This document shows, piece after piece, positions 1,196 to 46,748 of a DNA stretch of 49,247 nucleotides. The stretch is taken from positions 1-49,247 of the forward strand of contig CAYPDQ010000002.1 of assembly GCA_964409535.1 (NCBI GenBank), given 5' to 3'. The stretch's first letter is position 1. The number at the start of each line of letters is the position of its first letter. The position numbers and the translations under genes were made by a program. Below the pieces are notes generated by a model. It did not search any database, was not told where the DNA came from, and saw only the letters and a program-made list of their open reading frames with translations. This DNA comes from an uncultured Candidatus Saccharibacteria bacterium (lineage in GTDB: Bacteria > Patescibacteriota > Minisyncoccia > UBA6257 > 2-01-FULL-56-20).

Positions 1196-2194
1196 TCAAC
1201 TGTACTCTAATGTCTCGCGCATCCGGCTCTCGCCGACTATTTTTATGAAATCGGTCGCGAGAAGCGACTGGTAGATGAAGAAGCCGACTCCGGCGAGAAC
1301 GAGATGCGCCAAGCCGCCCACGCTCCGCAGGATGAAGAACATAACCACCCCCCAGATGAGCATAAGTTGCCCGCCGAATTTCTCCTGCCAGCCCCGCAAA
1401 CTCTTGAGCATCACCTGATAAAAAAGCGAGCTCAAAGGAGCAGTGGGATCAACTTTGGAACCGGCCCATTCGCCCAAACTCACGAGCACCTGTTTTGCCG
1501 CTTCTTCCACCGCCCGCTCCTTTGCCGCCGGCAGGAGCTGCAGGAAAGCCAGATTGGTTTTGAGCTGGAACTCGGCGAAACTCTTGGCGAATGCCTCTAT
1601 GGAAGAATCAAGTTTAAATTCCGGGTATAAGAGCGTCGTCACCCGGGAGGAAAAACCGTAAAGGCGGTCAAAAGCGTAGGGCGAGATAAAATCCCCGGCC
1701 GCGTTCCACTGCGGCAGATAGAAAAGCACCGCTAAAAGGACGAGCGCGGTGATCAGTTTATTGAGTTGGGGATGAACTACCTTGAAGAACTTGATGGCGA
1801 GCGCGCTTTGGAGTTCCGTTCGAGAGAGCATTTCTCCCCAGAGCATAAACCCGAAAGCCGCGAGCGCGGAACTCGCGAGAAAGGGAAACGGCAGATCGTA
1901 GAAAAAGGCCGCGATCCCCACCGTCGCCAAAACCAAAACCGAGATCCGGCGGCCCGGGCTTTTGGTTAAGAGCATCCCGAAAACGGAAAGCAGAGCAAAA
2001 AGAACGAAGAAAAACACCGTCCAAACCACGCTCGTGTCGCTCTTCAAATAGCCGCGGTAAAAAAGACCGAAGAAGATGGCGGCCAAAACCGTAAGGGCAT
2101 CCAACGCGATGGAGATATAAAAACCGGGCGGCCGGATGATTTTCTCCGCCGTGGTCCGTTTAAGAAGATTCTGGACCGTGAGTCTCTCGGCCAT
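1196..2194 (-). CDS. polytopic membrane protein of unknown function, wedged between dnaK and dnaJ
   Basis: 332-aa ORF with several long hydrophobic segments. Its annotated start overlaps the dnaK 3' end by 35 nt, and its stop lies 1 nt from the dnaJ start. No family recognised. Confidence 0.55.
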
Positions 2195-4031
2195 CGTTCT
2201 CTTTGTCTTTGTTGTCTTTATTGTACATCATTTGGCCCATCTTCTGAACCTCCGCCGAAAGCTCCGCAAGCGCCGATTTTATCACGTTCAGGTCGTTTCC
2301 ATCTTTGACCTTCTTCAGATTTTCCACTTTGGCGTTCACCGCCGACTTAACATCTTCTCCAACTTTGTCTCCCGCCTCGCGCAGGGTTTTCTCCGCGAGA
2401 TAGATCGTCGCCTCGGCCTGGTTCCTCACCTCCGCAAGGTCGCGCTTCCCGGCATCCTCCGACGCGTGTTCCGCCGCTTCCCGCTTCAGGCGCTCCACCT
2501 CGTCCTTGGACAAGCTGGTGGATGCTTCGATCTTCACCGACTGGGATTTGCCGGTTGCCTTGTCCAGCGCTCTGACGTTCAAGATGCCGTTCGCGTCTAT
2601 ATCAAAGGTCACCTCAACCTGGGGCACGCCTCGCGGCGCGGGCGGGATACCGTCCAAAATGAACCTGGCGAGCGTCCGGTTGTCCGCCGCCATCGGCCGC
2701 TCGCCCTGCAAGACGTGAACTTCCACCGAGGTTTGGCTGTCCGCGGCGGTGGAGAATATCTGGGTCTTGGAAGTCGGAACGGTGGTGTTCTTGGGGATCA
2801 TCGGCGTAGCCACGCTGCCCAGGGTTTCAATGCTCAAGCTCAAAGGCGTCACGTCCAAAAGCAAGATGTCTTTGACGTCGCCCTGGAGTATCCCGGCCTG
2901 CACTGCGGCGCCCACCGCGACCACCTCGTCCGGATTGATGCCCTTGTGCGGCTCTTTGCCGAAGAGATTTTTTACCGCCTCAACCATCGCAGGCATGCGT
3001 GTCTGACCGCCGACCAAAATCACTTCGTTGATCTCATTAAGCTTCAAGCCCGCGCCCTTAGGCGGAGCGGCGGTCACCGTCTCCCTGGTGAGTTCAACGG
3101 AGCGATCGATCAAATCTTTGACCAGGCCCTCCAGCTTCGCCCGGGTGAGCTTCATCAGGAAGTGCTTGGGGCCGCTTGCGTCCGAGGAAATGTACGGCAG
3201 GTTTATCTCCGTCTCCACCGCAGTGGAAAGTTCGTGCTTCGCCCGCTCTGCCGCTTCTTTGAGGCGCTGGAGCGCGAGTGGGTCTTTGGAGATGTCCATC
3301 CCCTCCTGTTTCTTGTACTCCGCGACCAGGTATTCAATTATCCGCTTGTCAAAATCGTCGCCGCCCAAGTGAGTGTCGCCGCCGGTCGCTTTCGCTTCCA
3401 CCACGTCGTCGCCGACTTCCAGAACGGAGATGTCAAAAGTTCCGCCGCCGAAGTCATAGACGACTATCTTCTCGTTCTTTTGTTTGTTCAAACCGTAAGC
3501 CAGAGCCGCCGCGGTCGGCTCGTTTATTATCCGCCGCACCTTGAAACCCGCGATCTCGCCTGCGTTCTTGGTCGCCTGTCTTTGGGAATCGTCAAAGTAA
3601 GCCGGAACGGTGATGACCGCTTCTTCCACTTTTTCGCCCAGTTTGGCTTCCGCGTCCGCCTTAAGCTTGGCCAGAATGAACGCGGAAATTTCCTCCGGGG
3701 AGTAGTCCTTGTCGCCCATCTTCACCCGGACGCTCCCGGACGGTCCTTCCGCAATGTCGTAAGGCAGCCAGGTTTTGTCCCGCTGGACTTCCGGGTCGGT
3801 CCATTTACGGCCGATCAAGCGTTTGACCGAAAAGATGGTGTTTTTCGGATTGGTGATGGACTGGCGTTTGGCGAGGAGTCCCACCAGGCGTTCCCCCGCC
3901 TTGGAGAGAGCGACCACCGAGGGCGTGGTGCGGTTGCCTTCCGCGTTCTCCAAGATCTTCGGCTCGCCGCCCTCCGTTACCGCAACCGCAGAATTGGTGG
4001 TTCCCAAATCAATTCCTAAAATCTTCGCCAT
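2160..4031 (-). CDS. dnaK: molecular chaperone DnaK (Hsp70)
   Basis: [28 protein letters not shown] and related Hsp70 signatures along the full length. Confidence 0.97.
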
Positions 4032-4584: not shown

Positions 4585-5263
4585 GTTTGAGGCCTTTCAT
4601 CACCCTTGCTGCTTTTCTGTAATCCATCTCTTTCGGGCCGATGGCGCAAACGAAGACCCGGTTGCCGTCCACGTCATAGCTCGCAGCCATAACCGCCAGG
4701 TTTTCGCTTTTGGTTATCGGGCTCTTGCGGCCGATGAAGACCCTTATCTCGTCATCCAAGAGAGAATTCTGCATCGCCGCCAAGCGCTCTTCCAGGCCCT
4801 CAAAGTCGTGGATCAAACTCCGCAATTCTACCGCCGGCCAGTCCAAGCGGTCAATCAAATTGGCGAGCATGCTTTTGTACACCGCTCTTTGCGGGAAAAC
4901 CGAGGCGGCCCCCAGTATGTCCAGTTCCGAGGAAAATTCTCGGAGGAACTCCGGCCAGGCCCGGCGCTCGAACAAACTGACCAAGGCGCGGGCGCAGTTC
5001 GGCTGTACGTCTTCAGAAAGAAGGTCCCGCGCATAGAATTCGTAGCCCTTATCGGCGGGCACACGTCCGGCGGCGTGGTGCGGCTGGGTAAGATAGCCCG
5101 AGTCGGAGAGGGCGTTCAGCTCCAAGCGGATCATTGCTGGCTTGATGCCGAAATCGTAATTATCGTAAAGCCATTCCGAGCTCACTGGCTCGCCGGTGTC
5201 TATGAATCCCCTAACGGCTGCTTTGAGTATTTGAGATGTTCTCTCGCTAAGCACGGGAGGCAT
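4550..5263 (-). CDS. hrcA: heat-inducible transcription repressor HrcA (short form)
   Basis: N-terminal winged-helix region (LSERTSQILKAAVRGFIDTGEPVSSEWL), GYLTQPHHAAGRVPADKGY, and a CIRCE operator directly upstream. At 237 aa it is shorter than classical HrcA. Confidence 0.85.
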   Translation of the reverse strand: MPPVLSERTSQILKAAVRGFIDTGEPVSSEWLYDNYDFGIKPAMIRLELNALSDSGYLTQPHHAAGRVPADKGYEFYARDLLSEDVQPNCARALVSLFERRAWPEFLREFSSELDILGAASVFPQRAVYKSMLANLIDRLDWPAVELRSLIHDFEGLEERLAAMQNSLLDDEIRVFIGRKSPITKSENLAVMAASYDVDGNRVFVCAIGPKEMDYRKAARVMKGLKRASKNDRGGEK

Positions 5264-5504: not shown

Positions 5505-6902
5505 ATGAAATCTCGGTTGAAGCTCTACAACACCCTCTCTCGGCGTCTCACAACCTTCCGGCCGCTTAAAGACAAGTATGTCGGTCTCTATACCTGCGGC
5601 CCGACGGTATATAACTACGCCCACATCGGCAACCTGCGCACCTACATATTTGAAGACATCCTAGAGCGCGCCCTGGAATGGAACGGCTATAGGGTGAAGC
5701 GAGTGATGAACATAACCGACGTGGAAGACAAGATAATCCGGGATTCAAAGAAGGCCGGAAAAACTATTTTTGAATTCACCGCGCCGTATGAGAAAGCATT
5801 CTATGAAGACATCAAAAAACTGAATATCAAGCCCGCGGACGTCTATCCCAAAGCCACCCGCCACGTTGAAGAAATGATCGCGCTCATAGAGAAACTCTTC
5901 AAAAAGGGGCTGGCTTACAAGGCGGAGGGTTCGGTTTATTTTGACATTTCCAAGTTCAAAAAATACGGGCGCTTGTCCGGCCTCAAACTCCGAAAGCTCA
6001 AAGCCGGTGCCAGAGTTGACGTTGACGAATACGCAAAAGAAACCGCGGAGGACTTCGTTCTGTGGAAAGCAGCGAAGCCGGGCGAGCCGTCCTGGCGCGC
6101 TCCTTTTGGAGACGGGCGGCCCGGTTGGCATATTGAGTGTTCCGCGATGTCAATGAAATATCTTGGCCCGACCTTGGACATTCACGCCGGCGGGGTGGAC
6201 CTCATATTCCCCCACCACGAAAACGAGATCGCCCAATCCGAGAGTGCGACCGGAAAAAAATTCGCCAAATTTTTCGTTGAGGGCGAACACCTCCTCGTGG
6301 ACGGTCAGAAAATGGCTAAGTCCTTGGGTAATACATATACCCTTCGGGATATAGAAGCCAAAAGAATAAATCCCCTCGCCTTCCGCTATCTGACTCTGGG
6401 CGCGCATTACCGCCAGAAATTGAATTTCACCTGGGAAAGTTTGGCGGCGGCGGAAAACGGGTTGAAAAATCTTTATAACCGCTACAGCGTCATTGCGACC
6501 GCGAGACACAGTCGTGGCGGGAAGCAATCCCGCAAGAGATTGCTTCGCGGGGCTCGCAATGACAAGTGGCGACAAAAGTTCACCGCCGCACTGAATGACG
6601 ATTTGAACACAGCCCGGGCAATCGCCGTCGCGGCCGCAGTCCTAAGAGACGCTAAGCTCAACCCTCGCGAGAAAGTCCCGCTCTTAAACGATTTTGACAA
6701 GGTTTTGGGGCTGGATATCGCGAAAGCCGCCGGAAAAACCGCCAAAATCCCCGCAAAAATAACGGAACTTGTCCGAAAACGCGAGGAATTCAGGCGTAAT
6801 AAACAGTTTGTGCAGGCCGACCGCTTGAGGCGGGAGATAGAACGGTTAGGATATGTGGTGGAAGATACGCCGCAGGGAGCCCGGCTGCGGCCTAAATCCT
6901 AA
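5505..6902 (+). CDS. cysS: cysteine--tRNA ligase
   Basis: LYNTLSR..., CGPTVYNYAHIGN (HIGH), KMAKSLGN (KMSKS), and the WHIECS zinc-site region. Start is ambiguous: in-frame GTG at 5484 and 5499, ATG at 5505. Confidence 0.93.
   Translation: MKSRLKLYNTLSRRLTTFRPLKDKYVGLYTCGPTVYNYAHIGNLRTYIFEDILERALEWNGYRVKRVMNITDVEDKIIRDSKKAGKTIFEFTAPYEKAFYEDIKKLNIKPADVYPKATRHVEEMIALIEKLFKKGLAYKAEGSVYFDISKFKKYGRLSGLKLRKLKAGARVDVDEYAKETAEDFVLWKAAKPGEPSWRAPFGDGRPGWHIECSAMSMKYLGPTLDIHAGGVDLIFPHHENEIAQSESATGKKFAKFFVEGEHLLVDGQKMAKSLGNTYTLRDIEAKRINPLAFRYLTLGAHYRQKLNFTWESLAAAENGLKNLYNRYSVIATARHSRGGKQSRKRLLRGARNDKWRQKFTAALNDDLNTARAIAVAAAVLRDAKLNPREKVPLLNDFDKVLGLDIAKAAGKTAKIPAKITELVRKREEFRRNKQFVQADRLRREIERLGYVVEDTPQGARLRPKS
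6490..6560 (+). repeat. nested inverted repeat embedded in-frame in cysS
   Basis: The outer arm cattgcga (6490-6497) pairs with tcgcaatg (6553-6560). Next, ccgcg (6498-6502) pairs with cgcgg (6545-6549). The inner arm gaagcaatc (6520-6528) pairs with gattgcttc (6537-6545) around an 8-nt loop. Confidence 0.7.
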
Positions 6903-8953: not shown

Positions 8954-10020
8954 CCGTGGCGGATAACCATCACATCTCCATCCTGAACAACGTACTCCTT
9001 GCCCTCTAAGCGCAGTAGGCCTTTCTCGCGCGCTCTTGCCCAGGAACCGGCTTCCAAAAGTTTCTGCCAGTTCACCACCTCCGCCCGGATGAACTTCCTT
9101 TCAAAATCGGAGTGGATCTCCCCCGCCGCCTGCGGCGCTTTGGTTCCCCGCCTGATAGTCCAGGCGCGGGTCTCGTCCTCACCGGTGGTCAAAAAACTGA
9201 TCAAATCCAAAATCTCGTAGGCCTTTTTTATCAAAGACAACATACCAACATTCTCAAGTATGTTGGTATGTTGTACTTCGGCCAAGTCCGAAACCACATA
9301 ATCCGCGCCCAGCTCTTTTATCTTTTTCTTTAAGTCCTCGCCTACCTCTCCCTCTTTGCCGTTCAAAAGATACAGTTGTTTTTTAGCGGTAAGCAAATTC
9401 AAATCTCTTATTCCACCATTCGCGCGAATTAGAGCAGCGAACTCCGGCGAGGCGGCAAGCACTCCGCCCTTTTCTAACGCGGATTTGATTGTGCGTAACG
9501 CCTCCAATCCTTGAACCGCTTCTTTTTTGCCGCCTTTGGCATCGGACTCCGCTTTGGCAAGACGCTTTTCCACTGTCTCCAAATCCTTAAAAATAAGCTC
9601 CGTATTTATCGTCTCCAAGTCCCGCAGAGGATCCACCGAACTCTCCACATGGACCACGTTCTCGTCCCGAAAAACTCGCAGAACGACAACGATGGCCTGT
9701 GTTTCCCGAATATGGGAAAGGAACTGATTGCCCAAACCCTCGCCCTTGTATGCGCCCTTGACCAAACCGGCGATATCGTAGAACTCCACAACCGCCGGGA
9801 TTTTCCTTGGCCCGCCGAAGCCTTGCGCGGAGGCGGCTTTTGGTAACGATAGCTCGTACAGTTTATCTAACCTTTCGTCCGGCACCGGCACCACTCCCAC
9901 GTTCGGGTCAATCGTGGCGAAAGGATAGTTCGCGGCCAAAACCTGCTGCTTAGTAAGCAAATTGAAAAGCGTGGACTTGCCGACGTTCGGTAGGCCTACT
10001 ATGCCTATTGATAATTTCAT
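8950..10020 (-). CDS. ychF: redox-regulated ATPase YchF (ribosome-binding)
   Basis: GIVGLPNVGKSTLFN, DIAGLVKGAYKGEGLGNQFL, and a TGS-like C-terminus (RAWTIRRGTKAPQAAGEIHSDFERKFIRAEV). Confidence 0.95.
   Translation of the reverse strand: MKLSIGIVGLPNVGKSTLFNLLTKQQVLAANYPFATIDPNVGVVPVPDERLDKLYELSLPKAASAQGFGGPRKIPAVVEFYDIAGLVKGAYKGEGLGNQFLSHIRETQAIVVVLRVFRDENVVHVESSVDPLRDLETINTELIFKDLETVEKRLAKAESDAKGGKKEAVQGLEALRTIKSALEKGGVLAASPEFAALIRANGGIRDLNLLTAKKQLYLLNGKEGEVGEDLKKKIKELGADYVVSDLAEVQHTNILENVGMLSLIKKAYEILDLISFLTTGEDETRAWTIRRGTKAPQAAGEIHSDFERKFIRAEVVNWQKLLEAGSWARAREKGLLRLEGKEYVVQDGDVMVIRHG
9237..9274. repeat. perfect 15-bp hairpin palindrome inside ychF
   Basis: acaacataccaacat (9237-9251), loop tctcaagt, atgttggtatgttgt (9260-9274). 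There are no mismatches. It is AT-rich relative to the gene and encodes QHTNILENVGML. Confidence 0.85.
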
Positions 10021-10148
10021 CCCGTTAGAGACAGGAAACTTTCGTTTCCGTAAGTTATCACGCTAATTCGACTTTGGCTAAATTACTTGTTTGCGGTGCA
10101 ATAGTATGACTCATAAGCTTGCGGTCTCTAACGGGATTCATTGAGGGG

Positions 10149-12538: not shown

Positions 12539-13056
12539 CTTTGGTAAGTCCCCATCAATTCCGCCTCGGCGATGACGTGGCCATTCATCGCGTCTCTCAA
12601 CTCATTTACGTTCGCATCCGAACCCAGGTCCAAAATCGTATCCAGAGCGTAGAGTTTAAAGTAGTAGCGATGCGCCCGGCCCGCCGGTGGACAAGGACCG
12701 CCGTAGCCGCCGCGCCCGAAACTCGTTTCGCCTTCCACGCTTTGTGGCGGCACGCTCCCTTCTCCGATGGCGGCGGTCTGCGGAGGAATGTTCCACGCCG
12801 TCCAGTGGGTGAAAGTTCCGCCGGGCGCGTCCGGGTCGTCCACGATCAAAACCAAACTCGCCGCCTCCGCCGGGACGTCCTGGACGCGGAGTTCCGGATT
12901 CACGTCGCCGCCGTCGCAGGTGAACTTGACCGGAATTCCCTCTCCCTCGCCGAAACTTGGACTGGTCAAAATCATTTTGCTTCTAATTAGCATCGCCGCG
13001 CCGACCAAGAGCGCGATCAAAGCCGCCAAGGTAAGTATAATCCGTAACCACCTCAT
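12535..13056 (-). CDS. YbhB/YbcL-family PEBP (Raf kinase inhibitor-like) protein with signal anchor
   Basis: LVLIVDDPDAPGGTFTHWTAWNIP and GYGGPCPPAGRAHRYYFKLYALD are PEBP signatures. Confidence 0.85.
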   Translation of the reverse strand: MRWLRIILTLAALIALLVGAAMLIRSKMILTSPSFGEGEGIPVKFTCDGGDVNPELRVQDVPAEAASLVLIVDDPDAPGGTFTHWTAWNIPPQTAAIGEGSVPPQSVEGETSFGRGGYGGPCPPAGRAHRYYFKLYALDTILDLGSDANVNELRDAMNGHVIAEAELMGTYQR

Positions 13057-13451
13057 TTTCTACGCGGGGTAAACCACTTGGACTTTTTCATCCTCCTTTG
13101 CATAGCCGACTTCTTTTCGGCCACGGTTTCCAGGTAATTGGCGTACTCCTGCCGCATAAGCCCAAGCGCATTTTCACTGCGGGGCTTCGTCCTCCCGGGA
13201 TAGCGCCAAGCGCTTATTATTTTACGCTTGCTCCCGACGTCCTGGTACATCACCCAAATCTCGTGTTTGCCGTTGCCAGCGGGCTGCATCGAGGCCCAGG
13301 TTTTGGGCGCGATCCCCTCCTCCGTCCGCGCGGGCGAGTGCAAAACCCGCCGCACCCGCGCCTCGGAGAGCCGATAGAAACCCATCTTCTCCCGGCTGTG
13401 CCAGGTCCAGTGGATGGTTTTGGGCTTATGAATGACGACTATTGACATCAA
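13053..13451 (-). CDS. hypothetical basic protein
   Basis: 132-aa ORF at native GC. The likely ATG at 13448-13446 overlaps the TGA of the upstream gene (TGATG). No family recognised with confidence. Confidence 0.45.
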   Translation of the reverse strand: MMSIVVIHKPKTIHWTWHSREKMGFYRLSEARVRRVLHSPARTEEGIAPKTWASMQPAGNGKHEIWVMYQDVGSKRKIISAWRYPGRTKPRSENALGLMRQEYANYLETVAEKKSAMQRRMKKSKWFTPRRK

Positions 13452-14278
13452 TGGATTTCACAAATCAGTTGCGCACGCTTCAAATATACCTCCCACTCTC
13501 GTTTTGCTATATCTATATCCCTCTCAAGAATTCTGTTGTGCCGATATTCACTGCCGCACACCCTTGCAGAAAAGTACCAGATGCCCATATTGGATTTTTC
13601 CGGATTATTGCTGTGATCCACAATAAACCGTGCCACGTCTTTATCTGTTTTAGTAGTATTGTTCAGCATTTTGACTGTCCGTCGCACCCATATATCTATG
13701 GGCTGTAACAAAAATCTATGTTCTAGGCTAAACTTTTCAGTATTGATATCCGTAATTTCCTTTAAGTCGCGTAAGAAAAAAGAAGATATTTTCGGGCCAA
13801 CCCCCCGAATATTTTTCACAAATTCAAACGCTACTTGGACTTCCCCTTGTTGCAACGAATCTTGCGTTGTTTTCACTAAGTTAGCTTTGTTACCCTCACG
13901 CAATTGTCGCAATAGCGACTTTGAATGTGGCGATTTTGCACTTGGATTAAGCGGTTGTCGATCAAGATTTAGTCTTTCATCTCCAAGTTTGTCTTTAAAA
14001 GATTTCCATAATTCTTCTTCTGTAATACTATCAATCCTGCCTTCCTTTAAAGCATTGCCTTCCTTCACGGCATCAACGGCAGCGTGGGTATAGTTGGGGC
14101 TCCTTCCCTGCCTCTCAAATGCATATCCGTTCAAGAAAAAAGCGGCGGCTTGCCACGGTTCCTTGCACTCTCCATATTCTTCCCAGTTAGGCCACAAAAT
14201 AGTTTGACAATAAACCCCGCCGACTTCTTCAAAAAACTTCATCCAGTGTTTTACCAAATCCAAGCGGACTATTTCCAT
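13448..14278 (-). CDS. HhH-GPD superfamily DNA glycosylase-like protein (divergent, Ogg2/EndoIII-like motif)
   Basis: IRGVGPKISSFFLRDL is a helix-hairpin-helix with Lys at the EndoIII K120-equivalent position. QPIDIWVRR downstream resembles the VDTHV/LDRH catalytic-Asp motif. The gene is low-GC. Confidence 0.55.
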   Translation of the reverse strand: MEIVRLDLVKHWMKFFEEVGGVYCQTILWPNWEEYGECKEPWQAAAFFLNGYAFERQGRSPNYTHAAVDAVKEGNALKEGRIDSITEEELWKSFKDKLGDERLNLDRQPLNPSAKSPHSKSLLRQLREGNKANLVKTTQDSLQQGEVQVAFEFVKNIRGVGPKISSFFLRDLKEITDINTEKFSLEHRFLLQPIDIWVRRTVKMLNNTTKTDKDVARFIVDHSNNPEKSNMGIWYFSARVCGSEYRHNRILERDIDIAKREWEVYLKRAQLICEIH

Positions 14279-15030
14279 TTCTCAATTTTCCTTATCATTT
14301 TCTCAAATTTTTCCGTGGGCATGTATTTCGATCTGCTCCGATTAGCCTCGGCATCAAATTCTAAATTACCGGACAGCAAAACAAAGTTTTCCTTATTGGG
14401 CAACCCACTATTCCTAATAAAGTCTTTTTCGTAATCCTCTACCTTATATTTTGAACGCCTACGGTGAGCTGCCGATACAGATGGCAACAATAGAAAATAC
14501 TGGCTCTTACTAATTCTGTGCGTCTGGCAATGCTTCTCAATTTGTTTCCTAAAATCGCTAATCGCCTTGTCCTGATCATACCCTCCTCTCTCTCCTCGTC
14601 GGAACTTACGTCTAACTTTCTTGATATTCTCTCTGGTAAAAACGCCTTGCATCCATCCTATTTTCGCCTTTGTCTCTACGATTGCTATCGTTCTACCATC
14701 TTTTTCTACCCTAACGTCAGGAACTGTTTTCTCTTTCTGACGCCGTAGGTAAATTTCCCACCCTAGATTTTTAACTTTGGAGTAGTGGTAGAAAATCCTA
14801 GCTATCAAAAACTCCATTTCTGAAGTTACAGGGTTATGATAAGCGGATTCGAATACATCTTTCTCCTTAAATGTATCTTTTACCGATTGCTCTGACGTGT
14901 ATAACTCTCCTATATAATCCAGTAGAAGCTTCGTTGCCTTTTTTCTGCTTGAAAGTAAATTGGCAATATACTTCGCTTTTCCATCCAACCATAAATAGTA
15001 CTCTCTTTTAATTTTGGAAAGTTTCTTCAT
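14269..15030 (-). CDS. PD-(D/E)xK nuclease, restriction-endonuclease-like
   Basis: SEMEFLIARIF ... VPDVRVEKDGRTIAIVETKAKIG fits the E-Xn-PD-Xn-ExK catalytic core. Low-GC. Overlaps the downstream glycosylase-like gene by 10 nt. Confidence 0.55.
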   Translation of the reverse strand: MKKLSKIKREYYLWLDGKAKYIANLLSSRKKATKLLLDYIGELYTSEQSVKDTFKEKDVFESAYHNPVTSEMEFLIARIFYHYSKVKNLGWEIYLRRQKEKTVPDVRVEKDGRTIAIVETKAKIGWMQGVFTRENIKKVRRKFRRGERGGYDQDKAISDFRKQIEKHCQTHRISKSQYFLLLPSVSAAHRRRSKYKVEDYEKDFIRNSGLPNKENFVLLSGNLEFDAEANRSRSKYMPTEKFEKMIRKIEKWK

Positions 15031-20230: not shown

Positions 20231-20974
20231 TCAGATGTGACAAACACCGCCGCCGTGCTTGGCGAAGTACTTTTGATGATATTCCTCCGCGCGGTAGAAC
20301 AGCCCGGCCGGGACGATTTCCGTAACGATCTTGCCCGGAAAGCGGCCGGATTTCTCCAGTTCCGTCTTGTATTTCTCGGCTTCTTCTTTTTCCTCCGGCG
20401 CAGCGTAGAAGATCGCGGAGCGGTACTGACTGCCTGACCCCACTTCCGCACTATCTCCGCGACCGCGTTCCTGCCGGTTTTGGCTCCCCGCAAGGCGCGC
20501 CGAGGAGACAATACCCGGTTGGGTAGGCTCCGAGGCGGAACGCGGCGGGGGGACAAAACCGGCGGAACCCGGAGGGATATGGCCAAATTCCGCATCAGCT
20601 GCGTCGCTCCTCCTCGGAGTACGGTCAAGTACGCCTTCGTCGTCGCTCCTTGCTGCTGCAGAATTTGGCTCATATCGCGGCCGGAGGATAGTGCGGAAGT
20701 GGGGTCTATCCGGCCCCTGGCGGTTAGGCGTGGTCGGGTCGTGGTTGTCAAAGAAAACTTTAAGTAATTCGTTATAAGTTATCTGTTCGGGATCGTATGT
20801 AACCTTGACCGCCTCCGCATGCCCGGTCTTGTCGGAGCAAACTTGTTCATAGGTCGGGTTCTCTGTGTGTCCGCCGGTGTAGCCGACTTCCGTCTCTTTC
20901 ACGCCTTTAACCTTGCTGAAAATCTCCTCCACGCCCCAGAAACACCCAGCGGCAAAAATTGCGGCCTCAAGCAC
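20231..20974 (-). CDS. msrA: peptide-methionine (S)-S-oxide reductase MsrA carrying an 89-codon in-frame insertion
   Basis: GCFWGVE active site, HAEAVKVTYDP, HDPTTPNRQGPD ... (insert) ... GSQYRSAIFY, and EYHQKYF. Confidence 0.85.
   Translation of the reverse strand: MLEAAIFAAGCFWGVEEIFSKVKGVKETEVGYTGGHTENPTYEQVCSDKTGHAEAVKVTYDPEQITYNELLKVFFDNHDPTTPNRQGPDRPHFRTILRPRYEPNSAAARSDDEGVLDRTPRRSDAADAEFGHIPPGSAGFVPPPRSASEPTQPGIVSSARLAGSQNRQERGRGDSAEVGSGSQYRSAIFYAAPEEKEEAEKYKTELEKSGRFPGKIVTEIVPAGLFYRAEEYHQKYFAKHGGGVCHI
20438..20704 (-). mobile_element. 267-nt insertion bounded by terminal inverted repeats (MITE/RPE-like or structured-RNA element) inside msrA
   Basis: The left end ccccacttccgcactatc (20438-20455) is the exact reverse complement of the right end gatagtgcggaagtgggg (20687-20704). 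Pairing extends imperfectly to about 29 nt. An internal stem pairs ccggttttg (20474-20482) with caaaaccgg (20554-20562). The length is a multiple of 3 and the frame is open. Confidence 0.6.
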
Positions 20975-21816: not shown

Positions 21817-22557
21817 ATGAAACTTATATCTCTAAACACGTGGGGCGGACGTGCTGGTAAGGAAAAGATTCTTGATTTTTTCAGGAAGTACAAAGATACG
21901 GACGTTTTCTGCCTCCAAGAGGTATGGAACGGCGGACATGACCAGGCGGCTCAATGGGGCGACGTCGTACCATACCTTTTAAGCGACGTCAGCGAAATGT
22001 TGCGGGACCATGTTGCGTTTTTTAGACCTCATTGGCAGGATTGGTACGGCTTGGCAATCCTTATTTCAAGAAATCTTGGCGTTCGTGAAGAGGGAGATGT
22101 TTTCGTTTTTAGAAGAAGAGCGGATGTATTTGATGGAGAGGTAGTCAATCATGCCCGTAATATCCAATACGTGGAAATAGAAACAAAGAAAGGCCCACTG
22201 ACAGTGATAAATTTCCACGGACTTTGGAATGGTGGCGAGAAAACGGATACTGATGAGCGGCTTCTACAGTCAGATAATATCGTGAAATTCCTAAAACGGA
22301 TTCCACATTCCCATATCCTGTGTGGCGATTTTAACTTATTACCACAAACAAAAAGTTTAGGAAAACTGGAAAATCTTGGAATGAGAAATCTTGTCAAAGA
22401 GTTTGGTATTACTTCAACCAGATCAAGTTACTATGCAAAGCCGGAGCGCTTTGCGGATTATACTCTCGCAAGCAACGATATCAAAGTTAACGAATTTAAA
22501 ATATTGCCGGATGAGGTCTCCGACCACCTTGCTATGTATTTAAATTTCGAAAACTAA
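21817..22557 (+). CDS. endonuclease/exonuclease/phosphatase (EEP) family protein
   Basis: ISLNTWGG, DVFCLQEVW, VINFHGLW, CGDFNLLP, VSDHLAM. Confidence 0.85.
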   Translation: MKLISLNTWGGRAGKEKILDFFRKYKDTDVFCLQEVWNGGHDQAAQWGDVVPYLLSDVSEMLRDHVAFFRPHWQDWYGLAILISRNLGVREEGDVFVFRRRADVFDGEVVNHARNIQYVEIETKKGPLTVINFHGLWNGGEKTDTDERLLQSDNIVKFLKRIPHSHILCGDFNLLPQTKSLGKLENLGMRNLVKEFGITSTRSSYYAKPERFADYTLASNDIKVNEFKILPDEVSDHLAMYLNFEN

Positions 22558-22576
22558 TATCCCCTGCCCGGCAGCC

Positions 22577-23320
22577 ATGTATAAAGCATTAATTTTCGAT
22601 TTGGATGGAACGGCAATTCCGAATAAGCCGGATGGACTGCCATCCGATGAACTTGTGAAAGTAATCCGAAAATTAAAGAAAAATTTGAAGATTTGCGCGG
22701 CAACCGGCAGACCTCTATACAATTCCAAACCCATTCTTCGGAAGCTCGGTTTAACCGACCCCTGTATAATTTCGGGAGGGACACAGCTCGTAGATCCGAC
22801 AACCGAAAGGGTCTTATGGGAAAAGGACATGGATAAATCGCAGGTAGAAGAAATAATGGCGATTACATCGAAATATCCTTACCAAGTTTTTTTTAGCGAT
22901 GAAAAAACAAGTGCCCTGGGAAAAGACAAGAAAATCAAAGGTGCCGAGCGGATAATTTATATAATGTCAGTAGAAAAAATAGAAACAGAAATTATTTTAG
23001 AAAAGTTGGCTAAAATACCAAATATAACCGCTCACAAAGTAATTTCTTGGTCGCCAGGTTGTTTTGATATCCACATAACTCATTCAGAGGCAACAAAAGA
23101 ATATTCCCTGCATGTGCTTCTCGAAATATTGGGTGTTAACAAAAGTGAAGTCGTTGTAGCCGGAGATAGTAATAATGACCTTCCTCTTTTCGAAATAGCA
23201 AATTATAAAATAGCAATGGAAAATGGATCGGAAGAACTCAAGGCCAAAGCGGATTTTATTGCTCCAGATATCAACGAAGACGGGTTAACAATAGCACTCC
23301 GAAAGGTCTTTTCTATCTAG
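22577..23320 (+). CDS. Cof-type HAD-IIB phosphatase
   Basis: LIFDLDGTAI (motif I), ATGRP, GDSNNDLPLFE (motif IV). Confidence 0.85.
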   Translation: MYKALIFDLDGTAIPNKPDGLPSDELVKVIRKLKKNLKICAATGRPLYNSKPILRKLGLTDPCIISGGTQLVDPTTERVLWEKDMDKSQVEEIMAITSKYPYQVFFSDEKTSALGKDKKIKGAERIIYIMSVEKIETEIILEKLAKIPNITAHKVISWSPGCFDIHITHSEATKEYSLHVLLEILGVNKSEVVVAGDSNNDLPLFEIANYKIAMENGSEELKAKADFIAPDINEDGLTIALRKVFSI

Positions 23321-23455
23321 GTCGGTTCCAATAACGTCCCAGGCGACCGGCAAGCAAAACCAACTCGCTCTTGCGGCGAGGCAATTTTGTTTTATGCTGA
23401 TGGGAGTTTAGGCTGTGTTAGTTTTCAAAGGTTTTCCCCAGAGAAAAAGTTAAGA

Positions 23456-23461
23456 TATAAT
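23456..23461 (+). promoter_or_regulatory. -10 box TATAAT, 6 nt upstream of the ATG at 23468
   Basis: gaTATAATtttcgcATG. Confidence 0.55.
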
Positions 23462-23467
23462 TTTCGC

Positions 23468-24073
23468 ATGAGCGAAGTGGAAAAAATCTTTAATAACCAT
23501 AAAGAAGAATTGAGACAAGTTGTAGAAATTATCACCGTTTTCAATAGAATAGAAAACATCGTGGTTATATTCGTAAGTAGCGCGTTTGCTTCTGTTTACG
23601 ACGGGCAGGAACGGATAATCTTGATGAATGACGTACTAAACGATGTCAATATTTTTGAAACCTTCAATCAAAAATTAAATTTTCTGGAAAAAACAATTTC
23701 AAGGGTAGCAATGATTGCGAAACGGGCTAAAGAAGCGTTCGACGAAAAGAAATACCTCAATGTTTGTAAGTCCATTAGAGATATCCAGAGGTATCGTAAC
23801 AAAATTGCTCATATGTCATTAATGTTTTCCCCCGAGGGAAAGGCTGTTATTTTCAAACGGAAAAAGGACAAGGAATTATTGGTAACCAAGGGTGGTAGCT
23901 TTAACAGGGAAGAACTCGATTTGAATAACGTTACAGAAAAGGTCTGGGCAGTTTATAAAACGGCGGAGGAGGTTTTACTTAAGGAGGGTATTAAAGATAT
24001 CATAAACATTCTACTGAAGGAAGAGTTAGTAAATTTTTACCGGACAAGCTCGGTGAAGAAAACTTACAAATAG
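23468..24073 (+). CDS. HEPN-motif protein (Abi-like putative RNase/toxin)
   Basis: AT-rich orphan. IRDIQRYRNKIAHMS contains the Rx4H HEPN motif in its common RN..AH form, preceded by the helical FNQKLNFLEKTI. Start placed at the internal ATG because of the -10 box; the track start is TTG at 23387. Confidence 0.5.
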   Translation: MSEVEKIFNNHKEELRQVVEIITVFNRIENIVVIFVSSAFASVYDGQERIILMNDVLNDVNIFETFNQKLNFLEKTISRVAMIAKRAKEAFDEKKYLNVCKSIRDIQRYRNKIAHMSLMFSPEGKAVIFKRKKDKELLVTKGGSFNREELDLNNVTEKVWAVYKTAEEVLLKEGIKDIINILLKEELVNFYRTSSVKKTYK

Positions 24074-36164: not shown

Positions 36165-36809
36165 ATGCTTAAGAGCGCCGGGAGGGAACCGCTAAGCAGT
36201 TTGTCCCATCTCTTGGGCGCATTGCTTGCAGCCGCAGGACTTGTGCTGCTTATCGTGGTTGCGGCAAAAAACGGCAGCGCGAGGCACATCACCGGATTCA
36301 CGCTTTTCGGGGTGAGTTTGATACTTCTATACGCTACAAGCTCCCTTTACCACTTTTTCAAAACCCCGGTGCTCAAAAAAATATTCCAACGCCTGGACCG
36401 GATCGCAATATACGTCCTCATAGCCGGCACGTATACGGCGGTGTCCTTGGCGTTGCCGAGTCGGAGCTGGGGCTGGAGTTTGTTCGGCGTGGAATGGGGC
36501 CTTGCCGTTTTGGGGATAACGCTGGAATTTTCCGGGTTCAAGTACAAAAAATATCTGTCTCAGGCGTTATACCTCTCCATGGGCTGGCTCGCGCTCATCG
36601 CCCTGCCGGTGGTTCTGAGCTCTTTCTCCGCAACCGCAATCGGGCTTTTAGTCGGCGGCGGAGCACTTTACACTCTGGGCTTCGTATTTTTCGTCCTGGA
36701 CCGTTTCGTACCCGCCCGGCCGTGGTTCAGGATGCACGATATCTTCCACTTTTTGGTCATAGCCGGAAGTTTCAGCCACTTCTGGATGCTCTTCCGGCAC
36801 ACTCTATAG
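36165..36809 (+). CDS. hemolysin III / PAQR family channel protein
   Basis: 7 TM segments, SSLYHF, DRIAIYVLIAGTYT, C-terminal HDIFHFLVIAGSFSHFW. Confidence 0.85.
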   Translation: MLKSAGREPLSSLSHLLGALLAAAGLVLLIVVAAKNGSARHITGFTLFGVSLILLYATSSLYHFFKTPVLKKIFQRLDRIAIYVLIAGTYTAVSLALPSRSWGWSLFGVEWGLAVLGITLEFSGFKYKKYLSQALYLSMGWLALIALPVVLSSFSATAIGLLVGGGALYTLGFVFFVLDRFVPARPWFRMHDIFHFLVIAGSFSHFWMLFRHTL

Positions 36810-36826
36810 AAATTTTTCCGTATCCA

Positions 36827-38656
36827 TTAGCCTTTGATCCCGAGCGCTTTGCGTCGGGCGGCCATCTCGTCCAGGGTGACTTTCCTCATCCGCACGCTTT
36901 TAGGCGTGACTTCCACAAGCTCGTCGTCGCCGATATATTCCAAGGCGTCTTCCAGATCCATTGTTCGGGGTGCGTCAAAGTGCCCGTCCAATCCCTGATT
37001 CTTGGAACGCATGTTGGACAATTCTTTTTCTTTGCAGACATTGACCGGCATGTCCTGGCTGCGGGAATTCTGTCCGACCACCTGGCCCTTGTACACTTCC
37101 AACCCCGGCCCCACGAAAAGCACTCCCCGATCCTGCACGTTTAAGAGGCCGTAAAGGCGGGTGATACCAGTTTCGTGCGCGACGAGCGAACCTTGCTCCC
37201 GCTCACGCCAGTTCCCGGGATCCGGGAAGTAATCCTCGAATATGGTATTCATTATACCAAGGCCGCGCGTGTCGGTAAGAAACTCCGTGCGATAGCCGAA
37301 AAGTCCGCGGGTGGGAATCAAAAATTCAAGAAAGGTCGTGCCTTCTTCCACGCGCATGTCCTTCAATTCTCCCCGACGGCCGCCGAGCTTCTGGATGACC
37401 GCGCCGGCATACTGCTCCGGGACCTCGATCAAGGCCCGCTCGTAAGGAGTTTGTTCTTCTCCGTCCACCGTCTTGGTTATGACCTGCGGCCTGCCAACCT
37501 GGAATTCGTATCCCTCCCGGCGCATGCGTTCTATGAGGATCGCGAGGTGCAGTTCGCCCCGGCCGGCGACGATCCAGCCGCTCCCAGCGGGCAAATCCGG
37601 GCCAACTGCGTCCTCGATCTTAAGCGCCGCGTCCGATTCCAACTCTTCATACAAACGCTCCCGGATCTGACGGGAAGTCGTGAATTTTCCTTCCCGGCCG
37701 GCGAAAGGAGAATCGTTCACGGAGAAAGTCATTTTGACGGTCGGTTCCTCGATCGCGAGAAGCGGCAAGGCCTTCGGAGCCGCCGGATCGGCGAGGGTCT
37801 CGCCGATCGTGATGTCCGGAATGCCGGAAACCGCGGCTATGTCGCCCGCCGCCACCTCACTCACGTCGTTTCGGCCAAGTCCTTCAAAGGTCATGAGCGA
37901 CACCAGGCGCAGCTTGTTGACCGCTCCCGCGCGGTTCACATGCGCAATTTCCTGTCCGTTCTTCAAAACCCCGTTCACCACCCGTCCGACCGCGATCCGG
38001 CCCTTGAACTCGTCCGCGAACAAACTGGTTACGAGCATCTGCAGCGGTGCCTGCGGATCTCCCTGCGGCGGCGGAATGTTCTTCAAAATAGCTTCGAATA
38101 CCGGACTGATATCCTTCATCTTGCCGAGATCCGGTTCCGTGCCCGCCAAACCCTGTTTGGCGGAAGCGTAGACCACCGGGAAATCTGCGGTCGCGTCGTC
38201 GGCTCCCAGTTCCAGGAAAAGACCGAGGATCTTGTCCAAAACCCAATCCGGCCGGGCATCCGGCTTGTCAATCTTATTTACGACCACGACAATGCGATGC
38301 TTCATTGCGAGCGCCTTCTTCAAAACGAAGCGGGTCTGCGGCATCGGCCCCTCTTTGGCGTCCACGAGCAAAAGACAGCCGTCCGCGAGAGTAAGCACCC
38401 GTTCCACTTCTCCGCCGAAATCCGCGTGGCCGGGAGTATCGATTACGTTGATCTTCACCCCTTGCCACTTGACCGAGGCGTTCTTGGAAAAAATGGTTAT
38501 GCCCCGCTCCCGCTCCAGTTCGTTGGAATCCATTATCAGTTCCCGGGGCCCGTCCGTTTTGAGACGAAAATCCTGGGACTGCGTTAAGAGCGCGTCCACC
38601 AAGGTGGTCTTGCCGTGATCCACGTGAGCTATTATCGCAACATTCCTCAATTCCAT
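36827..38656 (-). CDS. typA: translational GTPase TypA/BipA
   Basis: [50 protein letters not shown]. 609 aa. Confidence 0.95.
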
Positions 38657-38667
38657 TGAATTAAAAT

Positions 38668-38684
38668 ACCCTCCCGAAGAGGGT
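38668..38684 (-). terminator. terminator hairpin after the IMPDH-family gene
   Basis: ACCCTC-ccgaa-GAGGGT. On the minus strand the hairpin is followed by attttaatt. It lies 11 nt upstream of the typA start. Confidence 0.5.
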
Positions 38685-38733
38685 GTCCCCGTTTACGCCA
38701 TAAATAATATAATAAATCCCAACAAAAAGCAAA

Positions 38734-39789
38734 TCAGCCCTTGATCACGTCCAAATCGTGGACTTGGCCTTCGCGTACTGAGGCCTTGGTGATGCGCACA
38801 AACCTCGCCCGGCGGGGCATTTCCGGGATGGTTCTCGCGCCAATGTAGCCCATGGAAATCTTCACGCCTCCGGCGATCTGATTTACCACTTTCTCCGCCG
38901 AACCGCGGTAGCGTACGAGCGCTTCCACCCCTTCCGCCACCATGGTATCGCCCTTCTTCGTAAGATAACGGTCGCTGGACATCCTGGTTTTTAAAACCGA
39001 TTCCGACCCCATACCGCGGTACTCTTTATATTTCACCCCGCCCTTCATAATGATCTTGCCCGGCGCTTCGTCCGTCCCGGCCAAAAGATTTCCGAGCATA
39101 ACCGCGGATGCGCCCGCAGCCAGGGCTTTAGCCGCATCGCCGGATTTGCTGATGCCGCCGTCGGCAATGACCGGAATTTTCTTTTTCCTCGCTATCTCCG
39201 CCACCTCCATCACCGCAGCGAGCTGGGGCATACCCACTCCGCTTACCACGCGGGTAGTGCAAATGGAGCCGGGACCGACGCCCACTTTCACTCCGTCCGC
39301 GAATACAACCAATGCCCGGGCGGCCTCTTTGGTCGCGATATTGCCAACGATCAACCTGGAACGGGTGAGGCGACGGCGGATGTTCCGGGCGCTCCTTATG
39401 ACCTTCAAATTGTGCCCGTGAGCGCAGTCAACGACCACAATGTCCGCGCCCGCGGCTTGAAGCGCAAGCGCCCGGGCCTCGTCAAAAGGTCCGCAGGCGG
39501 CCGCGACCGGAAGGCGCTTGGCTTTCACTTCTTTTACCATCCGCGCCTCGTAGTCCGCCGTGCAGTTGCGGTGCAAAACCCCAAGGGCACCCAAGCGACC
39601 GAGAGTTATCGCCATTTTCGCCTCGGTCACCCGGTCCATCGCTGCGGAAAGTATGGGCAGATTTAAAAAGAAGCCGCGAGCGATTTCGGCTTTCAGGTTG
39701 GCTTCACTCGGCTCTATTTCGCTTGCGGTCGGCCGGATAAGGACGTCGTCAAACGTGAGCGCTTCGGGGAAATGGATTGCTTTGGCCAT
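38734..39789 (-). CDS. IMP dehydrogenase/GMP reductase family protein lacking the CBS (Bateman) subdomain
   Basis: [44 protein letters not shown] (catalytic Cys loop), and GGISKSGD. The sequence runs straight from HRN...VK to the barrel, with no CBS insert. Start set at the ATG at 39789. Confidence 0.85.
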
Positions 39790-39794
39790 ATCCA

Positions 39795-39800
39795 ATTATA
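39795..39800 (-). promoter_or_regulatory. -10 box TATAAT, 5 nt upstream of the ATG at 39789
   Basis: The minus strand reads cacTATAATtggatATG. Confidence 0.55.
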
Positions 39801-39804
39801 GTGA

Positions 39805-39810
39805 TAAAAT
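39805..39810 (+). promoter_or_regulatory. -10 box (TGaTAAAAT), 7 nt upstream of the GTG at 39818
   Basis: gtgaTAAAATagtaaatGTG. Back-to-back with the divergent -10 box at 39795-39800. Confidence 0.5.
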
Positions 39811-39817
39811 AGTAAAT

Positions 39818-40267
39818 GTGAAAGTCCGGGAGGTGATGGAAACCGAAGTGGTTTCGGTCAGGCCGGAAACCAAATACGAGGAGGCGGCGAAGATAATGGT
39901 CAGTCGTAACTTCAGCGGTCTGCCGGTCACGAACGATCGCGGCAAGTTGGTAGGGATGATCTCGGAAAAAGATCTCTTCCGGGCAATGTTTCCGGATTAC
40001 GAATCTTTTTCAGCCGAACCACATGCCTATCAAGACCGCGAAGCTCTGGAAGACAGGATCGAAGACATCCGCAATAACCCTGTCGAGATGTATATGTCCT
40101 GCCGGGTTCTGACGGTGCAACCGGAAACGCCGGTCCTCAAAGCCGCTGGGATCATGCTCGCCCACGGCGTCCACCGCCTGCCGGTCGTGGAGAACGAGAA
40201 GTTGGTCGGCATCGTCACCCGGGAAGACATCTACAGCGCGATCCTGAAACGGCATTTGGGTTTATGA
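39818..40267 (+). CDS. stand-alone CBS-pair (Bateman) domain protein
   Basis: Two CBS repeats: VREVMETEVVSVRPE...GLPVTNDRGKLVGMISEKDL, and VEMYMSCRVLTVQPE...HRLPVVENEKLVGIVTREDI. Confidence 0.85.
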   Translation: MKVREVMETEVVSVRPETKYEEAAKIMVSRNFSGLPVTNDRGKLVGMISEKDLFRAMFPDYESFSAEPHAYQDREALEDRIEDIRNNPVEMYMSCRVLTVQPETPVLKAAGIMLAHGVHRLPVVENEKLVGIVTREDIYSAILKRHLGL

Positions 40268-40683
40268 TAAATCTCACCGCGCACGCGCTTCTTTTCACCA
40301 TTGCGGCAATCGGCGTAAGCGAAACCTCGTATCTCATAAGAAAGAGGGTCGCGGCACAACAACCGGTTTGCCCCATCGGCGAGAACTGCTACACCGTTTT
40401 AAATAGTAAATACAACCGTACTCTCGGCGTTCATAACGACATTCTGGGGATGGCGTTCTACGTCGCCTTCGCGTTCATCGTGGCATTCCTGGTGATCGGC
40501 GTGGGCCCGGCGGCGCTTTGGCTAAAACTCGCCGGGTTTATGCTCGCGGGCGCGACCGCGATGTCCGCGTTCCTGATCTACGTCCAGTGGAAAATAATCA
40601 GGGCATGGTGTTTTTGGTGTCTTATGTCCGCGGCCACGGTCGGGCTGATGGACCTCATCATTCTCATCTCTACCCTAAAATGA
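40264..40683 (+). CDS. vitamin K epoxide reductase (VKOR) family protein
   Basis: 4 TM segments, a loop cysteine pair (CPIGENC) and the CFWC redox motif in the last helix. Confidence 0.75.
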   Translation: MINLTAHALLFTIAAIGVSETSYLIRKRVAAQQPVCPIGENCYTVLNSKYNRTLGVHNDILGMAFYVAFAFIVAFLVIGVGPAALWLKLAGFMLAGATAMSAFLIYVQWKIIRAWCFWCLMSAATVGLMDLIILISTLK

Positions 40684-41048
40684 GAAATTACGCTTTCCAT
40701 ATATTGCGGGTCGGCATCGCCGTCACCTTCCTCTGGATAGGCGTACTCATCTTCGCTTCCCCGGAGGCCTGGGGGAATCTCCTGCCCTCCTGGGCGGCCG
40801 GGATCATGCCGATGCCCTTGGAGCAAGCGATGCTCGGCACCGCGGTAACGGACATTCTCATAGGATTTTTCCTGCTTATCGACTTTTACACCTGGTTTTT
40901 CTCGCTCCTCGCGGCGCTCCATCTCATAATCGTCCTCATCGTCGCGGGCATCACCCCAAGCACCGCGCGAGACATCGGACTCCTGGCGGGATGCATCTCG
41001 CTTATATTTGAGACCTGGCCGTTTGACTGGCCAGGGCCGAAAAATTAG
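40680..41048 (+). CDS. small membrane protein (DoxX-like), apparent paralogue of 12194..12538
   Basis: The ATG at 40680 overlaps the VKOR stop (ATGA). 122 aa and hydrophobic, with ARDIGLLAG near the C-terminus. Confidence 0.5.
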   Translation: MRNYAFHILRVGIAVTFLWIGVLIFASPEAWGNLLPSWAAGIMPMPLEQAMLGTAVTDILIGFFLLIDFYTWFFSLLAALHLIIVLIVAGITPSTARDIGLLAGCISLIFETWPFDWPGPKN

Positions 41049-41097
41049 TATGCAGGCAGGTTCGGAAAGCCGATACTTGTAAACCAGGAGAAACCCT

Positions 41098-42711: not shown

Positions 42712-42714
42712 AGA

Positions 42715-42762
42715 AAGCCGCGCAGTGGATCGGACGAATGTTCCGGATTTGCTGCGCGGCTT
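42715..42762. terminator. hairpin between convergent purH and purM
   Basis: aagccgcgcag (42715-42725) pairs with ctgcgcggctt (42752-42762): a perfect 11-bp stem with a 26-nt loop. U-tracts are weak on both strands. Confidence 0.45.
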
Positions 42763-43887: not shown

Positions 43888-43891
43888 CGGT

Positions 43892-46712: not shown

Positions 46713-46748
46713 AATAAATATGCCTGATTATACATCAAAATTCTTTGT

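Follow-up and report, generated by a model that had tools for sequence, protein, structure and literature searches.

Comparison with related copies indicates that the msrA gene of an uncultured bacterium is interrupted by a piece of mobile DNA. The gene lies on contig CAYPDQ010000002.1 (assembly GCA_964409535.1), of which positions 1 to 49,247 were analysed as a whole and are called the window below. We assign a probability of roughly 0.75 to the reading that the insert in this gene is one copy of a family of non-autonomous, fold-dependent mobile DNA elements of ~270 bp that occur in uncultured bacteria. This reading is carried by the presence of homologous elements with the same boundaries at unrelated loci, by an empty site in the closest orthologue of msrA, and by a pairing pattern that is kept by changes on both sides of the stems. 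An initial annotation, made from the letters of the window, had described the insert as a discrete palindromic insertion that is not part of MsrA and is comparable to the Rickettsia palindromic elements (RPEs); this description is borne out by the other copies and the empty site.

The insertion in msrA

The limits of the window copy (AGA...TCA) were set by comparison with the other copies of the family. Within these limits the element forms 91 codons in phase 0 that replace a single codon of the homologues, the x of PDxGS. Exactly one residue stands at this place (the D-x-G of NRQGPDxGSQYRS) in 43 of 43 aligned homologues, with V in 23, I in 7 and R in 5 of them, and one residue also fills the D-G gap in every solved MsrA structure compared. 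Because the homologues have a single residue between Asp and Gly, the net gain of msrA, as judged from the alignment, is 90 codons (270 nt) between the invariant Asp and Gly of PDxGSQYRS. A size of 267 nt (89 codons) had been given first, with 270 nt (90 codons) as an alternative, and it is the alternative that stands. The catalytic GCFWG motif and all family-invariant residues are kept on either side of the insert in the homologue alignment. The sole Pfam match in the 247-aa protein is PMSR, in two pieces, and both this match and the alignments with MsrA structures in the PDB break after D89 and restart at G181. The insert peptide (91 aa) starts with RPHF and ends with AEVGS, and its loop would follow the substrate-binding Asp by one residue and precede the catalytic Tyr of QYRS by five.

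None of the 120 top-scoring MsrA homologues in the list (8000 were scored) contains the insert. Only proteins with a second domain or an end extension among these 120 are long enough to contain it, the single-domain proteins having ~153-230 aa. P0002, the closest orthologue, with an aligned identity of 83%, shows the empty site and reads CCG GAC GTG GGC AGC without an insert. On this comparison the insertion is younger than the divergence of this msrA from its closest known orthologue and is recent on the scale of the gene family.

A lineage-specific loop or domain of MsrA, with DNA that is palindromic by accident, would likewise be in frame and free of stop codons and would leave the flanking enzyme intact, as is the case here. 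Such an origin is very improbable, since the same DNA occurs elsewhere in non-coding positions and in other frames, which effectively refutes it. In addition, the insert differs in base composition from its host (GC content 0.64 versus 0.54 in the rest of msrA), and its GC content at the three codon positions (0.70/0.64/0.57) is not coding-like, unlike that of the host gene (0.59/0.39/0.66). Disorder is predicted by AlphaFold run with the family alignment: the MsrA core has a predicted local distance difference test score (pLDDT) >90 on both sides, and residues 86-182 score <50. The initial annotation had named relatives that share the peptide without the inverted repeat as a case that would speak for a protein loop. 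No such relative, and no other MsrA with this segment, was found among the same 120 listed homologues or the 43 aligned ones.

Further copies and the conserved fold

A 376-aa set of the four open-frame translations of the insert, used as query, led to open reading frames (ORFs) that cross related DNA, and the contigs of these ORFs yielded six further full-length copies at unrelated loci, from five other samples/assemblies. These copies were matched by nhmmer with E values of 1e-31 to 1e-42 (2-copy model) and scores of 207-250 bits (7-copy model). All seven units start with AGA and end with TCT or TCA; the boundaries common to the seven unrelated loci are AGAnCnCAT...ATGnGnTCT, and the bounds of the family unit can be written as AGAACCCAT...ATGGGTTCT. 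The units measure 273, 274, 274, 270, 272, 266 and 277 nt (0, 1, 1, 0, 2, 2 and 1 modulo 3). A length divisible by three, which had been taken as a property of the element, is not one, given the range of 266-277 nt and the frameshifts caused by the copies in a CYTH gene and a helicase gene.

Different kinds of sites are occupied by the family (Table 1). The ribosomal proteins L31, L5 and S14 were confirmed as neighbours of the L005 and L073 copies. The L005 copy comes from the same sample as the window, has matching tetranucleotide usage, and is 81% identical to the window copy in the interior. Four copies lie inside protein-coding genes (msrA, dockerin, CYTH and helicase), two of which are shifted in frame. 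The CYTH domain gives a contiguous match (38.9 bits) only upon removal of the element and a 1-nt frame correction. In the helicase copy, an 88-codon ORF (L071:949-1220) runs from the original helicase ATG through the element to a TGA, which overlaps the ATG at the 3' end of the element (ATGA); that ATG is in frame with the UvrD-like helicase, and the overlap looks like a termination-reinitiation rescue of a frameshifting insertion. The intact paralogue of the interrupted tRNA-like gene, 680 nt downstream of the L074 copy, has TAAT at the equivalent site. Overall, six of seven copies have sense orientation relative to the host or downstream gene, and the distance to a start codon is within ~30 nt for four of seven; both proportions are biased by the detection of copies via ORF predictions.

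Some of these loci show further features. At L005:6170-6465 and L071:930-960, the element stands between a good -10 box (TATAAT and TACAAT, respectively) and a start codon 7-8 nt downstream; the genes disrupted there may have been leaderless, with the insertion at the transcription start region. The region L074:4690-5850 consists of tandem modules, each with a tRNA-like gene of abnormal anticodon stem-loop, one of which is intact (5678-5750) and another split by the element, and it also contains a tmRNA-like fragment (4693-4764) and repeated hairpins (GGGTTCCCGCCTGCGCGGGAAC).

The copies also bear on the possibility of an assembly artefact or a chimera at the inverted repeat. Inverted repeats can cause mis-assembly, and both assemblies carrying this msrA derive from one sample. 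However, full-length homologous elements with the same boundaries occur on six other contigs from five other samples, different assemblers and different data sources, and the reading frame and both halves of the gene are collinear, so that an artefact is extremely improbable.

The window copy folds into a four-way junction composed of a closing stem of ~30 bp, two hairpins of ~100 nt and a tiny central hairpin, and the same four-way fold is found in every copy. RNA folding energies are -171.6 kcal/mol (z = -10.5) for the sense strand and -166.9 kcal/mol (z = -8.4) for the antisense strand. The perfect terminal inverted repeat that had been noticed in the initial annotation exists, but its length is 20 nt (20436-20455 / 20687-20706) instead of 18, and the imperfect pairing noticed beyond it does continue, to ~30 bp. 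The 18-nt core is present at just these two places in the 49-kb window, with 0 expected in 100 shuffles, in agreement with the view that the repeat is beyond chance. Two internal pairings had been proposed as well. That of 20474-20482 with 20554-20562 is real and forms part of a 19-nt stem of hairpin A. The segments 20500-20507 and 20610-20617 are complementary but bridge two different hairpins and do not covary. As a tertiary or pseudoknot pairing, the latter were also rejected, being pairable in 82% of cells, without covariation and no better than shuffles.

What the family conserves is this fold, not its sequence. The copies diverge by 20-40% in sequence, and the terminal stems of the window copy and the L005 copy differ at most positions while each is perfectly paired. 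Across the 95 consensus pairs in the seven copies, 92% of cells are paired, compared with 76% in shuffles and ~42% when the partners are slid. Double changes, on both sides of a pair, were detected in 56 of the 95 pairs versus 27 in shuffles, and none of 500 shuffles reached the observed value. Beyond AGAnCnCAT / ATGnGnTCT, the terminal repeats show the lowest sequence conservation within the element, with their complementarity kept; the terminal stem is 23-37 bp long in the other copies. Sequence is conserved at the junction (CCGCG-ATATGAGCC ... GGCCATAT-CCCnnnGGG-TTsCG ... CGsAA-CGCGG), where the central mini-hairpin consists of CCC, 3-4 nt and GGG in all copies. It is also conserved in two purine-rich segments at the apex of hairpin B (CAAGGAGCGACGACGAAGG at 20634-20652 and CCGAGGAGGAGCGACGCAG at 20599-20617) and in the pyrimidine-rich counterparts at the apex of hairpin A (..CTCCTCGGCGCGCCTTGC..).

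Every copy matches the 7-copy nhmmer model on the reverse strand too (46-85 bits); by this sequence comparison, therefore, the element is a diverged large inverted repeat, the halves of which are themselves hairpins, with a polarity that can still be defined. A signal of the active strand was sought in the seven copies through G.U pairs, folding energies and GC skew, with no consistent answer: folding energy favours the sense strand in three copies and the antisense strand in three and is about equal in one, and G.U and A.C mismatches are about equally frequent.

Table 1. Features of the msrA insertion (window coordinates) and locations of the other copies of the family
Feature	Position	Strand or orientation	Description or basis
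msrA ORF	20231..20974	minus	247 aa, interrupted in frame; ORF call, Pfam, PDB alignments
Element	20435..20707	minus	273 nt, 5'-AGACCCCAC...GTGGGGTCA-3' on the msrA sense strand; comparison with other copies
GAT codon	20708..20710	minus	Invariant Asp89, directly 5' of the element (flank ..GGAT up to the boundary)
Closing stem, 5' arm	20677..20706	minus	Pyrimidine-rich (..TATCCTCC..); outer 20 nt (20687-20706) perfectly complementary to 20436-20455
Hairpin B	20576..20676	minus	Stem covaries between copies
Central mini-hairpin / junction linker	20569..20575	minus	CCCTCCGGG, spanning ~20568-20576
Hairpin A	20467..20568	minus	Approximately the reverse complement of hairpin B; covarying stem
Closing stem, 3' arm	20436..20466	minus	Purine-rich, with outward-facing Shine-Dalgarno (SD)-like GGAG
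GGC codon	20432..20434	minus	Invariant Gly181, directly 3' of the element
L005 copy	3 nt upstream of rpmE start	opposite orientation	Between TATAAT box and ATG
L073 copy	spc operon, between last codon of rplE and ATG of rpsN		4 nt before ATG
L072 copy	After codon 10 of dockerin-domain protein		270 nt, in frame; P0123 reads through
L071 copy	After codon 2 of UvrD-like helicase		266 nt, out of frame
L070 copy	Inside CYTH gene		272 nt, out of frame; gene split into two ORFs
L074 copy	D-loop of degenerate tRNA-like gene

Proposed movement and tolerance in host genes

Inspection of the flanks revealed no target-site duplication at any of the seven copies. Where a good reference exists, namely for msrA and the tRNA-like gene, the element takes the place of 3-4 nt of the target, and insertion can, to judge from the flanks, replace 0-4 nt. 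Since 5 of 43 homologues have Arg at x, the AGA of msrA may instead be the codon that was present before the insertion. Directly 5' of the element, three of seven copies have AAT, two have AATC or AATT, and the window has GAT, which suggests a short, one-sided target preference. An origin of the terminal stems by copying of the target site was considered and not retained, as alignment scores with the own flank (7.6) and with other flanks (6.9 +/- 1.3) did not differ, the exception being a 13-nt match in the dockerin copy. In this exact match (GGAGGTATTTTTG; L072:627-700), the 3' arm of the element shares its sequence with a part of the host gene located 30 nt downstream of the insertion; the chance expectation is ~1e-4.

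The mover of the element would be an enzyme acting in trans that recognises its DNA as a folded single strand or a cruciform, similar to the HUH enzymes of the IS200/IS605 elements and the REP-associated tyrosine transposases (RAYTs; REP, repetitive extragenic palindromic). A classical DDE transposase binding conserved terminal repeats would be a less favoured mover, because target duplication is absent, complementarity rather than terminal sequence is conserved, and the element is built as a doublet of hairpins.

Several points weigh against the reading as a mobile family. The 49-kb window and the DNA flanking the other copies were found to contain neither a transposase (including RAYT and Y1 transposases) nor another partner gene. 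The proposed class of enzyme is an analogy only, and IS200/IS605 elements do not have a long terminal stem. Moreover, the family is rare or poorly sampled, judging from exact-word and BLAST scans of the GTDB, JGI, IMG/VR, phage and plasmid collections, which did not find the element. A scan of the GTDB representative genomes with the 18-nt terminus gave only two single chance matches (Anaerolineae and Myxococcaceae). A conserved interior 18-mer hit 64 loci in JGI metagenome contigs, all of them chance matches by BLAST and nhmmer (the best, L028/L040, being a gappy 17.8-bit extension around the seed), and neither a two-block pattern in IMG/VR nor BLAST against phages and plasmids gave a match. 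Since copies were detected via predicted ORFs crossing the element, the sample is biased towards genic and start-proximal ones. Only the window and L005 copies can be tentatively assigned to one genome; the multi-copy status within a genome rests on these two and is not proven.

Stop codons are scarce in the family: 58 were observed in the seven copies versus 119 +/- 8 in dinucleotide shuffles, a two-fold depletion, and 11 of 42 frames are open versus 2.3 expected. As the seven copies are related, this depletion is one family trait rather than seven independent observations. Four of the six frames are open across the msrA insert, and three of six within the exact 273-nt boundaries; the earlier remark that the insert is free of stops holds for the msrA frame. 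In five of seven copies, the 3' arm also shares a GGAGG or GGAG-like motif, which is followed ~10 nt later by an ATG located 9-10 nt from the end; the window copy has GTG ~11 nt after GGAG and 9 nt from the element end, in frame with downstream msrA. Because of the inverted repeat, an equal outward-facing SD-like and ATG signal is present at the opposite end.

These terminal signals could also belong to a domesticated cis-acting RNA or DNA module that benefits the host, for instance a regulatory hairpin, an RNase III processing site or a portable ribosome-binding site. Such a role would fit the compensatory evolution that keeps the pairing despite 20-40% divergence, as well as the positions of the copies 3-4 nt upstream of the rpmE and rpsN starts and of the one that supplies a helicase start codon. 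We give it only a slim chance, since it leaves the disruptive copies (the CYTH gene and the tRNA-like gene) unexplained, no regulatory role is apparent for a copy in the active-site loop of MsrA, the orthologous genes of relatives are without the element, and the SD and ATG are buried in a duplex of ~30 bp.

If the copies are instead selfish mobile DNA, those surviving in compact genomes would be the ones that do little harm, of which three classes may be distinguished: in-frame copies free of stops (msrA and the dockerin gene), a copy of which the terminal ATG would restart translation (helicase), and copies inserted immediately ahead of start codons (rpmE and rpsN). In msrA, the element would be co-transcribed and translated through as a predicted disordered loop of 91 residues beside the active site. 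MsrA may then be impaired or down-regulated, not spliced clean, and its activity may well be reduced; in addition, the ~30-bp perfect duplex in the msrA mRNA is a plausible target of RNase III. The simplest outcome would be read-through translation with the predicted loop either tolerated or crippling the enzyme.

Removal at the RNA level, which had been raised in the initial annotation, would offer another way to keep msrA functional. The terminal stem of such an intron-like element would join its ends, and excision (by RNase III or a splicing endonuclease together with a ligase such as RtcB, or by self-cleavage) would restore the mRNA. A very stable, conserved and covarying structure, the sense orientation in six of seven copies, locations within otherwise intact-looking genes and an essential ribosomal-protein operon, and conserved boundary nucleotides (AGA...TCT) could all be expected in this case. 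Nevertheless, it is quite improbable, and is unsupported because the lengths are not multiples of three and deletion is inconsistent in restoring the hosts. No one removal rule serves all copies: msrA needs 270 nt out and the unit has 273, so that deleting the conserved unit leaves the gene one codon short; the CYTH gene needs 271 or 274 and the unit has 272, which gives a frameshift; and the tRNA-like gene would be 4 nt short. Moreover, no copy matches a group I or group II intron or a ribozyme in Rfam, the terminal stem is perfect and lacks a bulge-helix-bulge (BHB), the pairing signal is not strand-specific, and the helicase copy has evolved or uses a restart codon that would be needless if it were spliced.

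The hosts of the copies are probably Patescibacteria or similar members of the candidate phyla radiation (CPR), which is not proven; the assignment is based on the named nearest MsrA homologues (Paceibacterota, Parcubacteria and Uhrbacteria) and DUF5667, and on nothing else. As a separate observation, a nearly complete purine-biosynthesis cluster (GARS, AIRC, SAICAR synthase, ASL, AIRS, AICARFT/IMPCH and IMPDH) occupies 36800-49247 of the window, and such a cluster would be unusual for a typical CPR genome, which calls for caution over the CPR assignment of the host. Two further inverted repeats of the window are unrelated to the element, one with 23-nt arms (87% complementary) in the ychF-hydrolase spacer (10019-10137) and the other an 18-nt near-perfect palindrome inside ychF (9237-9274). 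A 627-aa ORF on the plus strand (2136-4019) matches Pfam NAD-GH (PF10712; E 6e-155); it is the antisense of dnaK (2160-4031, HSP70 E 2e-244), that is, a shadow ORF and not a gene. Low-GC patches were observed at 13000-15000 (0.41-0.47) and 22000-24000 (0.38-0.40), compared with ~0.55 elsewhere, and may be foreign DNA; the ORFs at 13448-15030 have no Pfam match.

Relation to known elements and implications

REPINs are REP doublets that form hairpins and are mobilised by RAYTs, HUH transposases of the IS200/IS605 type that are encoded by a single-copy gene of the genome. They have been described with compensatory changes and an alternative 'clover' fold (PMC3116915). Similar to them, the present element is non-coding and non-autonomous, consists of two inverted hairpin-forming units with a possible long hairpin or 'clover' fold, maintains its pairing by compensation (56 of 95 pairs) and produces no target-site duplication. 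However, it is ~270 nt long versus ~70-110 nt and has an extra terminal stem of ~30 bp, it lacks a conserved GTAG-type head, and, unlike the extragenic REPINs, it has copies inside msrA, CYTH, dockerin, helicase and tRNA-like genes.

RPEs are palindromic selfish DNA in protein-coding and RNA genes and are translated as an extra peptide (PMC10969869). The family resembles them in its occurrence in genes, its paucity of stop codons and its two in-frame copies (msrA and dockerin). In contrast to RPEs, which measure ~100-150 bp and are reported to be almost always in frame with a conserved peptide, its lengths are not multiples of three, two of four copies in protein genes cause frameshifts, and different frames are used; indels between copies also shift the reading frame within the element. 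The host phylum is another one, and a four-way junction is formed instead of a simple hairpin.

Classical bacterial miniature inverted-repeat transposable elements (e.g., Correia/NEMIS, ERIC and Nezha) are co-transcribed with their neighbours, and RNase III could potentially cleave their long duplex (PMC3184786, PMC10969869). The element shares with them a small size, the lack of coding capacity and terminal inverted repeats (perfect over 20 nt in the window), but it differs in having no target-site duplication, termini conserved just as AGAnCnCAT / ATGnGnTCT, and no known related autonomous insertion sequence.

Location within conserved genes, with the reading frame kept in some cases, is a trait shared with IStrons, introns and inteins. 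The statement in the initial annotation that the insert is neither an intein nor a group II intron is upheld: group I and II introns and IStrons differ from it by their ribozyme core, no counterpart of which or Rfam match was found in the element, and inteins have at least ~130 aa with splicing blocks (Cys/Ser at +1 and His-Asn at the C end), none of which is present in the 91-aa insert. Archaeal BHB introns differ as well, since their junctions are 3-nt bulges 4 bp apart, and those of the element are at the base of an uninterrupted perfect stem.

More general searches were also negative. No family was found in Rfam 15 at E up to 10 for the window element or up to 0.1 for the six other loci, the matches being chance miRNA hairpins only. 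A 3125-aa concatenation of the open frames of all copies, used as a protein query, had no match, and searches of full-text literature turned up no description of such an element in CPR/Patescibacteria. The family is previously uncatalogued; palindromic selfish DNA tolerated in genes was already known, and the architecture and apparent adaptations are new.

A repeat family of unusual structure is thereby added to bacteria whose mobile DNA is almost unexplored, and it would be a second independent case, after the RPEs, of selfish DNA that persists inside conserved genes. Gene callers yield spurious or chimeric proteins across such elements (e.g., P0121-P0127), and it would be a mistake to take the 247-aa 'MsrA' for a novel form of the enzyme. 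A more far-reaching view, which we consider doubtful, is that the family represents a new 'gene-tolerant' class of mobile elements for streamlined genomes, moved as a folded single strand or cruciform without target duplication, selected to be poor in stops in several frames and equipped with an outward-facing ribosome-binding site and start codon at both ends. If so, the element could persist in ORFs, or exactly in the gap that separates a start codon from the promoter or stop codon ahead of it, including in ribosomal-protein operons. Ribosomes would then either translate through the element or start anew at its end, a possibility suggested by the ATGA overlap of the helicase copy. In a bolder variant, the RNA copy may be actively removed or bypassed. 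Should the stop depletion and the terminal SD and ATG signals be adaptive, the family would illustrate a way in which mobile elements live with a near absence of intergenic space in their host genomes.

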